IMG/VR virus record: IMGVR_UViG_3300042698_000029
Location: 1 to 64,000 of that record
Source: a virus
Reading direction: 5' to 3' (one strand)
Length of the DNA: 64,000 nucleotides
The notes beneath the pieces were generated by a model, which worked only from the letters and a program-made list of their open reading frames with translations, ran no database searches and was not told the origin of the DNA. How positions within the stretch are numbered: position 1 is the first letter of the stretch; the number at the start of each line of letters is the position of its first letter. Below are positions 42,357 to 48,175 of this stretch, piece by piece. A program made the position numbers and the translations under genes.

Positions 42357-43772
42357 ATGGAAACTACTCTTCCCCGCCTGCGGGCCGTGCTCGACGGCGT
42401 TGACCGCACGGACGACTACGAACTGCTGCGGATCGCCGAGAACCACAAGGCACGCCGTGCAGCGATCAAGCAGGCCGCGTACAAGCAGCTCATGGGCATG
42501 CGCAAGCCCACGGAGTTCCTCCAGCTGGTGCGTGAGGCTTCCGACGGCCGCCCTCTGGCCATCGGCAAGCTGCGCGAGGCCGTCTCCTCGGGCGACTTCC
42601 CGCTGCTGTTCCAGAGCATCAGCCAGGCCTCGATGCTCGGCCAGTGGTCCGACCTGCCCCAGCAGTGGCCCGCGTTCTCGCAGCGCACCACCGTCCCTGA
42701 CTTCCGGCCCGCCCGTCTGGTCCGCTGGGACTCCACCCTGGAGCAGCTGCCCGACTCCAACGGCGGCGCAGAGCGTCACGTCCGTGCGCTTCCGCGAATC
42801 CCGGAGCTCACGGAGTACCCGACCTTCAACCTCACCACTGAGGGTCAGGACTACTTCGTCAACAAGTACGGTGCGCGCTTCCCGTTCTCGTGGGAAGCGT
42901 TCCTGAACGACGAGCTCAACGTCCTTCAGCAGCTGCCCGCGCAGATGGCGAAGTGGGCGCGCGACACCGAGGACGTCCTGACCACGGGTGTCCTCGCCAC
43001 GTCGACCGGCCCGAACCCGGACTTCTTCAAGTCGCCCACCGACCCGGGCGCCTGGAACTTCGGCAGCCAGGTCCCGCTGGGCAACTACGTCTCGTGGTAC
43101 ACCGGCGGCGGCAACCAGGTCGTGAACCCGCCGCTGACGCTGGACAACCTGGAGCGGGCGATCCAGTCCATCTCCATGCGCACGATGAACGGCCGCACCG
43201 TCCGGGTGCCGCAGTTCGCGCTCATCGTGCCGCCGTCGCTGTCCCTGACCGCCAACGAGATCGCCCAGGCGACCACGTACATGCGCGTCACCACGGACGG
43301 CGCGGGCAACGAGATCCGCATCAACGTCAGCTCTCCGGTCGCGGGCCGCTTCACGGTGGTCGAGTCGCAGTGGCTGCCGCAGATCGACCGTTCGGCGACG
43401 TCCGCCACCACCTGGTACCTGGTGCCCGCCGGTGGTATGACGGAACGCGGCCCGGCCATTGTGACCGCGTTCCTCCGTGGCTACGAGACCCCCGAGGTCC
43501 GTGCCATGGGAGACACCGGCCAGCGTGTCGGCGGCGGCGAGATCAGCCCCTACCAGGGCTCGTTCTCCCACGACGACATCCAGTACCGCGTCCGCACGAT
43601 CATCGGCGCGGCGGGCATCGACCCGTCGGCGGTGGCCGTGTCCAAGGGCAACGGAGTGGGCACCATCCCGGAGCCCGAGGCCCCGCTCATGGGCGGTATG
43701 AACTTCACGGCCCAGCCGATCGTGGCCACCACGGAGAACGTGGGACGCGCGAGCGGCTCCGCCAAGAAGTAG
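42357..43772 (+). CDS. major capsid protein (Mu gpT-like)
   Basis: SSGDFP, VPDFRP, KYGARF.FSWE...NDEL, LIVPPSL, FLRGYETPE; AAGGAGG RBS. Confidence 0.9.
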   Translation: METTLPRLRAVLDGVDRTDDYELLRIAENHKARRAAIKQAAYKQLMGMRKPTEFLQLVREASDGRPLAIGKLREAVSSGDFPLLFQSISQASMLGQWSDLPQQWPAFSQRTTVPDFRPARLVRWDSTLEQLPDSNGGAERHVRALPRIPELTEYPTFNLTTEGQDYFVNKYGARFPFSWEAFLNDELNVLQQLPAQMAKWARDTEDVLTTGVLATSTGPNPDFFKSPTDPGAWNFGSQVPLGNYVSWYTGGGNQVVNPPLTLDNLERAIQSISMRTMNGRTVRVPQFALIVPPSLSLTANEIAQATTYMRVTTDGAGNEIRINVSSPVAGRFTVVESQWLPQIDRSATSATTWYLVPAGGMTERGPAIVTAFLRGYETPEVRAMGDTGQRVGGGEISPYQGSFSHDDIQYRVRTIIGAAGIDPSAVAVSKGNGVGTIPEPEAPLMGGMNFTAQPIVATTENVGRASGSAKK

Positions 43773-43787
43773 CCGTCACCCATCTCC

Positions 43788-43821
43788 CGCCCGGCCCTGC
43801 TCTTCCCCTGGGGCCGGGCGG
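43788..43821 (+). terminator. Hairpin after capsid gene
   Basis: CGCCCGGCCC/GGGCCGGGCG stem. Confidence 0.5.
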
Positions 43822-43900
43822 GTGGTGTGACGGAGGTTCGTCGTTCCCTTCCGGCCGTCACACCGGGGCGGAAACCGGACACGGAGCCGGTTTCCGCCCG

Positions 43901-44072
43901 TTGAAGTTTGTAGCCTTAATGGGCTACAGTTTTTCGTGTCGGGCAGGGAAGTCTCCACCAGAGTGTGCCCTCTGGATCCTCGCCTACGTAGGAGCCCGCC
44001 TCTTCGTACTCGGGTTTCCGCCGTTTCTCCTTCACAGAAAAACCCCGCCTTCGCGATCAGGCGGGGTTTTTC
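43901..44072 (+). ncRNA. sRNA unit E (promoter, about 135 nt RNA, terminator)
   Basis: TTGAAG-N18-TACAGT; terminator AAAACCCCGCCT/AGGCGGGGTTTT; no ORF with RBS. Confidence 0.6.
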
Positions 44073-44097
44073 GCTGTTAAGGCTCGGTTTTCGCAGG

Positions 44098-44631
44098 TCA
44101 GAAGCGGTCCTCCGTCCATTCGACCAAGGGCGCTGCGACGGGGTAGGACACGACCACGAACATCCCTCCGGGGAGTTGCGAGGCCTGCATGCGGGTGCCG
44201 TCGCCCGGATCCACGGTCAGGACCGACCCGTAGAGGGCCCGGCCGCTCCAGGAGCGATAGGGGTGGACCCACAGACCCCGCGCCCGGAGTCTTCCGAGCA
44301 GTTCGACCGGTGGCCGGGGTTCCTCGTCGGCCCACATGCGGTGGGCGGTCATCAGGGCGCAGGCCGCCGGGTTGCAGCGCGGCATGCCGGTGGCATCGGG
44401 GTCCGGCTTGTTGAGGAGGGCGCACCGGACGGTGATGCCCTCGGTGTTGCGCCAGACCAGGCAGCCGCACGGGGTGAGTGCGTCGGGGGCTGAGTCGGTG
44501 TGCGAAGGCGTGTGGAAGTGGTACTCGGAGGGGCTCCACGATCCGCCGTGGGGCCGGAGATACCAAGAGCCCCGGAAAGTTTCCCGGATTCCGGAGCTCG
44601 TTGTTTTGTTCAGTTGAAACGTGTGTCCCAT
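44098..44631 (-). CDS. hypothetical protein (reverse-oriented within late operon)
   Basis: Start MGHTFQ; Cys/His-rich; ends near the bidirectional terminator. Confidence 0.5.
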   Translation of the reverse strand: MGHTFQLNKTTSSGIRETFRGSWYLRPHGGSWSPSEYHFHTPSHTDSAPDALTPCGCLVWRNTEGITVRCALLNKPDPDATGMPRCNPAACALMTAHRMWADEEPRPPVELLGRLRARGLWVHPYRSWSGRALYGSVLTVDPGDGTRMQASQLPGGMFVVVSYPVAAPLVEWTEDRF

Positions 44632-47320: not shown

Positions 47321-47349
47321 TTGACTTTTCCGGGTCGGGGGCCTAGGGT
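47321..47349 (+). promoter_or_regulatory. sigma70/HrdB-type promoter of HNH gene
   Basis: TTGACT-N17-TAGGGT. Confidence 0.7.
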
Positions 47350-47416
47350 GGACGCAAGAAGCCCCCGCGAGAGCTGACCTCCGGGGGCACGGACGAACTC
47401 AAGTAGGAGATCCGTC

Positions 47417-48175
47417 ATGCCTAAGCGTACCTGCTCCGTCGAGGAGTGCGACAAGCCCGTGAGGGTCCAGGGACTGTGCGCCACCCATGCCTACCGAATG
47501 CGTAGGCACGGCACGACAGACGGAACCGGTAAGTGGTTCCGGGGAACGCCGGAGGAGCGTTTCGTCCGTATGGTCGAAGTAGACGAAGTCTCGGGGTGCC
47601 ACGTCTGGACCGGAGCCCTTTCCGACGGGTACGGGTGCTTCAACTTGGGGGACGGGCAGAAGTCCTACCGAGCCCACCGGTTCTCTTACGAGCTGGTCCA
47701 CGGCCCGATTCCGGAGGGCCTCGTCCTGGACCACTTGTGCCGTAACAGGGCCTGCGTACGGGTGGAGCACCTCGAAGCCGTGACCAGCCGGGAGAACACC
47801 CTGCGCGGAGAGAACTTCAGCGCGGTCAACGCCCGAAAGACCCGCTGCCCCCAGGACCACCCGTATGACGAGGAGAACACCTACCTCACTCCAGACGGCG
47901 GGCGTCAGTGCAAGAGGTGCCGTTTTGAGGCAGTACGGGAGCAGCGGGAGTCCGAGGACTTCAAGGAGAAGCGGCGGCAGTACTACACGCCCTCCACGGG
48001 GGTTCGCGGACAGGGGGCCTACCAGAAAGAGCGGACCTCCTGCCCGCAGGATCACGAGTACACCGAGGCCAACACGATCATTGAGAAGCGTAAGAAGCCG
48101 GACGGATCCATTCGTGAGGTCCGCAAGTGCAGGGCCTGCGTGAACGCTTTGAAGGCTGCGCGACGAGCACGGTGA
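47417..48175 (+). CDS. HNH homing endonuclease
   Basis: CHVWTG...GYG...AHRFSYE...DHLCRNRACV..EHLE.VT..EN; two CPQDH.Y repeats. Confidence 0.92.
   Translation: MPKRTCSVEECDKPVRVQGLCATHAYRMRRHGTTDGTGKWFRGTPEERFVRMVEVDEVSGCHVWTGALSDGYGCFNLGDGQKSYRAHRFSYELVHGPIPEGLVLDHLCRNRACVRVEHLEAVTSRENTLRGENFSAVNARKTRCPQDHPYDEENTYLTPDGGRQCKRCRFEAVREQRESEDFKEKRRQYYTPSTGVRGQGAYQKERTSCPQDHEYTEANTIIEKRKKPDGSIREVRKCRACVNALKAARRAR

Follow-up and report, generated by a model that had tools for sequence, protein, structure and literature searches.

The window studied here is a stretch of 64,000 nucleotides, positions 1 to 64,000 of the IMG/VR virus record IMGVR_UViG_3300042698_000029 (153,126 bp; GC content of the window 66%), and we have focused on the unit that follows its major capsid gene, at positions 43901-44072. 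We consider it likely, judging from sequence and conservation, that this unit is a real small-RNA (sRNA) gene, predicted to give an independent transcript of about 135 nt and conserved directly after the capsid gene across a clade of large Streptomyces-type phages. The predicted RNA carries an invariant pyrimidine octamer, UUCUCCUU, and the exact complement of this seed, AAGGAGA(A), is the commonest extended ribosome-binding site of the phage non-structural genes. That the RNA acts by pairing with Shine-Dalgarno regions, chiefly those of the phage's own GGAGA-class genes, seems to us about an even chance.

Conservation and anatomy of the post-capsid unit

The major capsid gene (42357-43772, plus strand) was recognized by tblastn: its product shares 71% identity with the capsid proteins annotated in seven Streptomyces phages (184-200 kb), namely JustBecause, Kela, Quantum, Satis, Kradal, EhyElimayoE and Frankenweenie. 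Between the capsid stop codon and the end of a convergent minus-strand gene at 44098 there are 325 non-coding bases, and it is in this gap that the unit is situated. The same layout was found in all three cultured relatives examined (Satis, JustBecause and Frankenweenie), where a gap of 328-377 nt contains, in this order, a hairpin, the sequence ..TATCTT, a stretch of about 125 nt with TTTCTTCTCCTTTCC at its end, a GC hairpin and a T-run. A blastn comparison of 43700-44200 with the phage records gave no match, the RNA body being too diverged; searches by capsid homology brought together 7 IMG/VR loci and 23 metagenome loci with capsids 67-95% identical. Every locus whose sequence extends 450 nt or more past the capsid stop (28 of 28, five loci being too short) has a pyrimidine run containing TTCTCCTT, within a shared arrangement of hairpin, TAnnnT promoter, variable body of 90-135 nt, octamer and lineage-specific hairpin. 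Together with the window these loci represent 24 distinct sequences, in which the motif lies 197-340 nt past the capsid stop and the -10 element and the hairpin are kept without exception; the hairpin before the promoter is likewise present in every relative.

A scan of viral contigs for the motif followed by a hairpin added 23 loci with a capsid homologue upstream; this sample is biased towards the pattern and was used for diversity only. Among the 52 loci thus available 29 distinct 3' modules could be distinguished, and both TTCTCCTT and the octamer were invariant in 29/29; the three positions after TTCTCCTT are occupied by T or C, mostly C, and C, respectively. A strong hairpin always stands 3' of the motif, in 25 different sequences with energies of -24.8 to -34.3 kcal/mol (55 nt after the heptamer). 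The same scan gave 52 viral contigs with the pattern, 29 of them without a capsid homologue, and these were mostly ribosome-binding sites of minus-strand genes or AT-rich noise. The conservation in relatives makes the unit more than a chance arrangement. Fixed ends, a fixed 8-nt core, a hairpin whose pairing is kept despite sequence change, and a free body have the look of a putative seed-bearing small RNA. In L011, the closest relative, with a 95% identical capsid, the first RNA bases, the CCAGAG hairpin, the seed and the terminator are unchanged, together with a palindrome described below, while 48 nt of the body are replaced by 15 nt.

Reading of the sequence places a promoter-like site at 43901-43930 on the plus strand, with a -35 element TTGAAG (43901-43906), an 18-nt spacer (43907-43924) and a -10 element TACAGT (43925-43930). 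The pattern TTGAnn-N17-18-TAnnnT taken alone is not above chance, since the window holds 2 copies and 100 shuffles gave a mean of 2.36. Automatic detection found TAnnnT with a -35-like hexamer (mostly cTGGC/T) 17-19 nt upstream in 20 of the 24 distinct units; by eye, L006, L007 and L014 have TATGGT, and L005 has TACATT at an unclear spacing.

The predicted transcript extends from 43937, a 5' end deduced from the -10 element, to the T-run at 44071, and the assignment is based on its fold and on the lack of a coding signal. As a 136-nt RNA it folds with -54.3 kcal/mol (z = -3.25), and one of 200 shuffles folds equally well. Its body consists of the hairpin CCAGAG-TGTGCC-CTCTGG with a C-rich loop (43958-43975, identical in L011) and of a second hairpin deduced from the fold (43988-44021). 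These are followed by a 15-nt unpaired linker (44022-44036), which presents the invariant octamer at 44025-44032, the proposed seed, inside TTTCTCCTTC (44024-44033). The linker is open in both the minimum-energy and the centroid folds, with an unpaired probability of 0.91; the corresponding values are 0.91-0.95 in the L004, L006, L007 and L014 types and 0.43-0.59 in Satis-type RNAs. The intrinsic terminator at 44037-44072, recognized by the program scan and by folding, is built of A5 (44038-44042), a stem CCCCGCC/GGCGGGG (44043-44066) and T5 (44067-44071), and is usable on both strands; its fold, a 14-pair stem and then U5, has the GC-rich stem-loop and U-run of a Rho-independent terminator. 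All of the elements listed in the original prediction, which had been made from the letters of the window, namely promoter, inverted repeat, CCAGAG hairpin, TTTCTCCTTC and terminator, could be located where it had placed them.

The region has no GC3 (third-codon-position GC) coding signal and no tRNA. With its own promoter-like site, its own terminator and no coding potential, the unit has at the sequence level the properties by which sRNA genes are classified. An open reading frame (ORF) on the plus strand (43936-44493) was considered and rejected, as it lacks a GC3 signal and crosses the terminator. No Rfam 15 family, 6C (RF01066) and RsaE (RF01820) included, matched anywhere in the window at its gathering score, and a permissive search of 43760-44110 gave nothing above 22 bits on the RNA against thresholds of 50-60; Satis behaved likewise.

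The inverted repeat TGTAGCC (43909-43915)-TTAATG-GGCTACA (43922-43928) is a perfect 7-6-7 palindrome at 43909-43928, which overlaps the spacer and the -10 element and had been proposed as an operator. The evidence did not support this proposal. The pair of half-sites occurs once in 153 kb; the palindrome is identical only in L011 and is missing in L005, the next relative, and in all other lineages, and 20 unchanged bases are unremarkable at the divergence of L011. Perfect 7-bp inverted repeats with 2-10 nt spacers are common besides (104 in the window, mean 64.6 in 20 shuffles), and the protein at 32087, to which the proposal pointed, has no Pfam match (E <= 0.01). Nor is the palindrome a terminator, because L011 loses the T-run after it.

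The original prediction had also recognized a hairpin in common with sRNA D, and this observation was confirmed. The window contains at 33171-33675 a tandem array of four small-RNA genes (A-D), each built of a host-type promoter, a short folded RNA, a CU-rich motif and a terminator. The pattern CCAGA.{0,2}TG.{0,2}CCCTCTG, which was derived from the two copies in question, occurs in the 153-kb genome only at 33588 (unit D) and at 43958, while 100 shuffles gave a mean of 0.03. On its 3' side the hairpin continues with ..TTCCTTTGCAGG in D and with ..TTCTCCTTCACAGG in the L011 version of the RNA, in both cases a CU motif and then CAGG. By sequence, sRNA D and the post-capsid RNA are probably paralogues. 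Units A-C have only the general build in common with it. The post-capsid RNA differs from the array in standing alone, 10 kb away and within the structural module, at a position beside the capsid gene which is fixed in all relatives. As a separate observation, the 13 bases CGGTTTTCGCAGG at 44085-44097, past the RNA terminator, recur at 33155-33167, past the hairpin that precedes the promoter of sRNA A; this is at chance level (blast E = 0.59).

The unit is single-copy: blastn-short of 43773-44097 against the genome gave chance matches of 11-15 nt only. A scan of the genome for a CU motif, a hairpin and at least four T returned the present unit and one doubtful site at 65431-65456, outside the window, where the plus strand has TCTCCTTCCC, then a hairpin of 11 bp and a T-run, between two minus-strand genes (65410-65456). 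The same scan has a limited reach, as it failed to recover the unit of Satis, where its two matches were unconvincing, and its looser form is uninformative, because any 50 nt at such GC content folds below -20 kcal/mol. In bacterial genomes the matches listed by the pattern scan were taxonomically scattered, and no host look-alike was found among them; the one Streptomyces match that was read lies in apparent coding sequence, has no hairpin, and was discarded. A group of ten loci at 55-58% GC, and in addition L068, show a similar layout; in the unrelated phages L049, L052, L066, L067, L069, L072, L076, L086, L092 and L068 (52-58% GC) it consists of a short hairpin (GGAGGCCCGG..CCGGGUUCUCC), UUUCCUUUC and a terminator between a 240-aa gene and a long plus-strand ORF, and L068 has TTGACT-N17-TATGAT just upstream. 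This group, L068 included, was not counted among the members, since the 'promoter' TATAAT of L049 overlaps a stop codon.

Complementarity of the seed to ribosome-binding sites

There are 30 AAGGAGA sites located 3-11 nt before the start codons of GC3-rich ORFs; 28 of them are on the minus strand and none is in the structural module. The GAAGGAGAA sites in such positions number 12. The leftward genes singled out in the original prediction (starts 6868, 9988, 11129 and 13691) indeed have GAAGGAGAA-type sites 4-7 nt upstream and account for four of the 30, and its reading of the unit as self-contained, with a pyrimidine stretch complementary to the sites of leftward genes, is supported by the 30 sites (28 on the minus strand) and by the conservation of the unit in all testable relatives. 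Its additional suggestion, that late messages would be spared as leaderless, was not supported: GAAAGGAGGG precedes the ATG of the capsid gene by 7 nt and GGAGG-type sites are found at other structural genes, so these messages are not leaderless. The sites of the capsid genes belong to the GGAGG or GGGAGG types. Any sparing of the structural genes would have to rest on the difference between GGAGG and GGAGA and not on missing leaders.

Counts of AAGGAGA, AAGGAGG and GAAGGAGA sites were 28, 10 and 20 in the phage of the window, 29, 9 and 17 in Satis, and 4, 5 and 0 in a 300-kb Streptomyces sample. AAGGAGA and GAAGGAGA sites are strongly favoured by three phages (the present one, Satis and the phage of genome G001) and near-absent from the sample of the host genus (G002). 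The bias is also one of strand. In the window the ratio of minus- to plus-strand sites is 28:2 for AAGGAGA and 6:5 for AAGGAGG (p = 0.0096), and in Satis it is 130:42 for GGAGA and 67:54 for GGAGG (p = 0.0004). Minus-strand genes give lower duplex energies with the seed region (-15.2 versus -13.4 kcal/mol, p = 0.0009), and the duplex energies with the 16S tail show no strand difference (p = 0.16). Among the five small RNAs of the window the present one has 30 matching sites and the others 1-15. The RNA is therefore complementary to the ribosome-binding regions of several mRNAs, a property of the sRNA class, with a specificity over ordinary Shine-Dalgarno sites that is statistical only.

The seed resembles the ribosomal partner of these sites as well. 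It shares CUCCUU(UC) with the 3' tail of the 16S rRNA and begins with U-CUCC at the place where the 16S has C-CUCC. In a Streptomyces genome GGATCACCTCCTTTCT was found 7 times and its reversed control not at all, and in the single copy examined this is where the Rfam small-subunit (SSU) model ends; many bacteria are reported to have the same tail (PMC6288834).

The bases flanking the core could be compared in three complete genomes, the contigs of the L004, L005, L006, L018, L027 and L094 types being short. The window has the seed GUUUCUCCUUCAC, with AGGAGAAA at 7/17 of its AAA+AAG sites and a ratio of GAAAGGAG to GAAGGAG of 1:26; for G001 (seed CUUUCUCCUUUCC) the values are 10/25 and 11:34, and for Satis (seed UCUUCUCCUUUCC) 2/26 and 6:25. 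On the 5' flank, the genomes with UUUCUCC seeds (window and G001) have many more AGGAGAAA sites than the one with a CUUCUCC seed (Satis; Fisher p = 0.005). On the 3' flank, the window, with its seed ending in UUC, has almost no GAAAGGAG, and the genomes with UUUCC-ending seeds (Satis and G001) have more of it (p = 0.04). Both differences run in the direction which pairing predicts, a hint of possible co-evolution between seed and sites.

Anatomy, conservation, the invariant seed, its complementarity and the bias in site classes were observed; transcription, its timing, pairing in vivo and repression all belong to the predicted side of the resulting model. The host-type promoter TTGAAG-N18-TACAGT would start the RNA and the strong intrinsic terminator would end it; the two hairpins of the body would leave the 15-nt linker single-stranded, so as to present UUCUCCUU; and the seed would pair with the Shine-Dalgarno regions of phage mRNAs, possibly also of host ones, and would block the loading of ribosomes. 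Genes of the GGAGA type would thereby be turned down relative to the structural genes of the GGAGG type. In a more ambitious version, which we regard as possible but rather doubtful, the RNA would be a global, sequence-coded switch: the GGAGA class would fit the RNA better than the ribosome and the GGAGG structural class would fit the ribosome better, ribosomes would move from non-structural to structural messages, and seed and sites would co-evolve.

Several points weigh against such an antisense function, or against the unit on which it depends. The promoter agrees with the consensus at 8/12 positions, and it is for this reason that the program scan, with a minimum of 9, did not list it. The consensus fold of the Satis-type RNAs (40 pairs, 9 with compensatory changes) engages GUUUCUUCU with an internal AAGAAGGAAC and, at the foot of the terminator, UCCG with CGGA, so that only CCUU stays open. 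In two soil metatranscriptome runs, which contained 7-8% of the sampled words and were aligned to 42400-44400, contigs of 90-95% similarity covered the capsid gene up to 43916 and none covered 43941-44400; these runs are uninformative on the RNA body, because the contigs come from relatives whose body would be too diverged to align. The complementarity is in itself non-specific, since any CU-rich stretch pairs with any Shine-Dalgarno site, GGAGG being also reached through G-U pairs, and the A after GGAG could reflect a general preference for A-rich spacers. Gene starts and site counts were obtained with a crude ad hoc caller and not from curated annotation, and the co-variation is based on three complete genomes and hence on two events, with equally crude site calls. 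Finally, a conserved single target did not emerge: the four best sites of Satis (GAAAGGAGA) precede genes for which this genome has no homologue. As for the soil runs themselves, their capsid contigs (90-95% alike over 42402-43916) indicate that relatives are present in soil RNA libraries, where carry-over of DNA is possible.

Flanking elements and competing explanations

Directly 3' of the capsid stop codon stands a long GC hairpin (43773-43834, plus strand). In Rfam its region (43773-43846) scored 27.5 bits (E = 0.0009) with the model of the actinobacterial mraW motif, below the gathering score of 50; this is probably a chance resemblance of long GC hairpins. A second hairpin, GGGCGGAAACCGG / CCGGTTTCCGCCC (43866-43899, plus strand), abuts the promoter and is likely the terminator of the capsid mRNA, although its U-tract, GUUGAAGUUUG, is poor; in L011 its pairing is kept via A-to-G changes and one compensatory pair. 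Between the two hairpins of this 3' untranslated region (UTR) a second pyrimidine motif, GTTCCCTTCC, was read at 43843-43852 (plus strand). Relatives have GCCATTCCCC, GTTCCCCTCC or GTTCCTGCC at this position; the motif was noticed past the capsid stop of the loci L004, L006, L008, L010, L018 and L027, several relatives having GCCATTCCCC, which in L008 is inside a hairpin loop. It may serve as another seed, or act in cis on the capsid message.

On the other side of the unit, the GC3 frame plot and the sequence define a convergent minus-strand gene of 177 aa (44098-44631, from the ATG at 44631), which ends 26 nt past the terminator. It has no Pfam match, and no Shine-Dalgarno motif precedes its ATG (..gtcaaaaacacATG). 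Relatives carry quite different genes after the RNA unit, which marks this place as a variable island inside the head module. Over 34 distinct contexts the next gene was on the plus strand in 18 and on the minus strand in 8, was left undetermined by the script in 7 and was too short to judge in 1; the window is counted among these 7, and for it the convergent ORF is seen in frame plot and sequence. Elsewhere in the structural module, at 47321-47416, a second promoter-like site (TTGACT, 17-nt spacer, TAGGGT) was noticed in a gap of 44% GC, followed by a hairpin leader and a gene starting at 47417.

Five other explanations have been weighed against antisense pairing. The RNA might be real and yet act as a decoy, a copy of the 16S tail that binds or soaks up a factor recognising this tail, such as an initiation factor, ribosomal protein S1, or a ribonuclease or toxin of host or phage cutting the anti-Shine-Dalgarno. 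Within the 16S tail, UCCUU is the cleavage site of some MazF toxins. The invariant stretch has CUCCUU(UC) in common with the tail GGAUCACCUCCUUUCU, its strict 8-nt invariance amid otherwise changing lineages would suit a fixed partner, and the Satis-type tract, largely held in structure, is a poor fit to antisense use. However, a candidate for the partner was not found, the bases on either side of the core vary together with the ribosome-binding sites of each phage, which is not predicted for a fixed host factor, and the 16S stretch is a free 3' end while in the RNA it is placed before a hairpin; we consider a decoy unlikely. To the same degree improbable is the absence of any dedicated function, that is, a module boundary at which the terminators of the capsid gene and of the convergent gene have come together by accident with a stray promoter, any RNA being a by-product; such a site would resemble the promoter/stem-loop (PeSL) cassettes known from T4-type phages (PMC2839356). 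The DNA past the unit is in fact variable, with different genes in either orientation, the two-way terminator also serves the convergent gene, and neither the promoter pattern nor the palindrome rises above chance level in the window. A by-product would leave unexplained that the 8-nt pyrimidine stretch is invariant in 29/29 modules while body and hairpin change, and that TAnnnT is kept at the right place in all lineages; moreover the unit is single-copy and not a dispersed cassette.

Slightly less probable again is an extended 3' UTR of the capsid message, formed by read-through of the weak first terminator, which might pair in cis with the capsid ribosome-binding site or stabilise the message, as in the 3'UTR-5'UTR interaction of icaR. 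The strict linkage to the capsid gene in all relatives, the poor U-tract of the first hairpin and the second conserved pyrimidine motif in the capsid 3' UTR proper speak for it, and, with G-U pairs allowed, pairing of the seed with the capsid site AAGGAGGG is possible. Against this stand the conserved -10 element between the capsid terminator and the RNA body, the capsid sites (GGAGG, GGGAGG), which match the seed less well than those of 30 other genes, and the lack of a consistent co-variation of the 3' UTR motif with the capsid site in five lineages compared by eye. A leader or attenuator of the next rightward gene is very improbable. A plus-strand gene does follow the terminator in the 18 contexts mentioned, for example gene 30 of Satis, but a convergent gene comes next in the window and in at least 8 further contexts, and a general role of this kind is ruled out because that gene occurs in either orientation; no alternative anti-terminator pairing was seen, and the Satis spacer before gene 30 has its own promoter-like site. 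Least credible is a tiny opposite-strand gene for which the conserved motif would serve as ribosome-binding site (GGAAAGGAGAA). A minus-strand start codon is located 5-13 nt after GGAG in 18 of the 24 distinct units, but 6 of 24, the window included, have none there, and the peptides (18-56 aa) are unrelated between lineages, with the frame shifted in close relatives (L001 versus L002); on these grounds the micro-ORF was rejected.

Known systems and the significance of the unit

The antisense reading was compared with known regulators. The host phylum, Actinobacteria, is reported to be without Hfq. The 6C sRNA of Actinobacteria (RF01066) is chaperone-independent and addresses many mRNAs with C-rich stretches (PMC6486639). 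It resembles the present RNA, for which such a mode of action is a prediction, in the high-GC Gram-positive setting, the exposed C-rich stretches and the multiplicity of mRNAs. It differs in being a host RNA with C-rich hairpin loops, whereas here a phage RNA has a linear CU-rich stretch before the terminator. The two RNAs do not match in sequence or structure. The only match of the 6C model lies in the capsid 3' UTR of Satis, outside the RNA (19 bits against a gathering score of 47, E = 3.1); the window has none.

RNAs with UCCC motifs, of the RsaE/RoxS, LhrC and RNAIII type, are trans-acting and pair through unpaired C-rich motifs with the G-rich Shine-Dalgarno regions of many mRNAs. Functionally, 6C and RsaE/RoxS of the Firmicutes (PMC6158497) come nearest to the present RNA. 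In contrast to the present unit, these RNAs are encoded by the host and serve metabolism or the stress response, their motif is CCCC or UCCC instead of UUCUCCUU, and their families have no Rfam match here.

The RegB protein of T4 inactivates early mRNAs at GGAG (PMC1702504). RegB (and RegA) would have the same logical target as the RNA proposed here, the GGAG ribosome-binding sites of one temporal class of phage mRNAs; RegB, however, is a protein endoribonuclease which cuts GGAG, while the RNA would mask it, and both hosts and phage lineages are unrelated. The PeSL cassettes of the T4-type phages combine a sigma-70-like promoter with a terminator stem-loop at the edge of hyperplastic regions (PMC2839356). 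They are dispersed in many near-identical copies that drive shuffling, while here a single copy encloses a conserved RNA with an invariant motif; the unit is not a cassette of this type, because it is single-copy.

Searches of the literature on small RNAs of Streptomyces phages, on anti-Shine-Dalgarno RNAs of phages, on non-coding RNAs of actinobacteriophages and on phage Satis returned no description of this RNA. The small RNAs of lytic phages are poorly known, and for Streptomyces phages none is described in the literature searched. Cultured relatives, such as Satis and JustBecause on S. lividans, allow the prediction to be tested directly. Should one class of ribosome-binding sites be masked by the RNA, this would parallel, at the RNA level, the protein-based shut-off of early messages in T4, and it would explain the preference of these phages for AAGGAGA sites, which the host hardly uses. 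A single 8-nt seed would then also offer a simple handle for reprogramming translation in Streptomyces, an industrially important genus.

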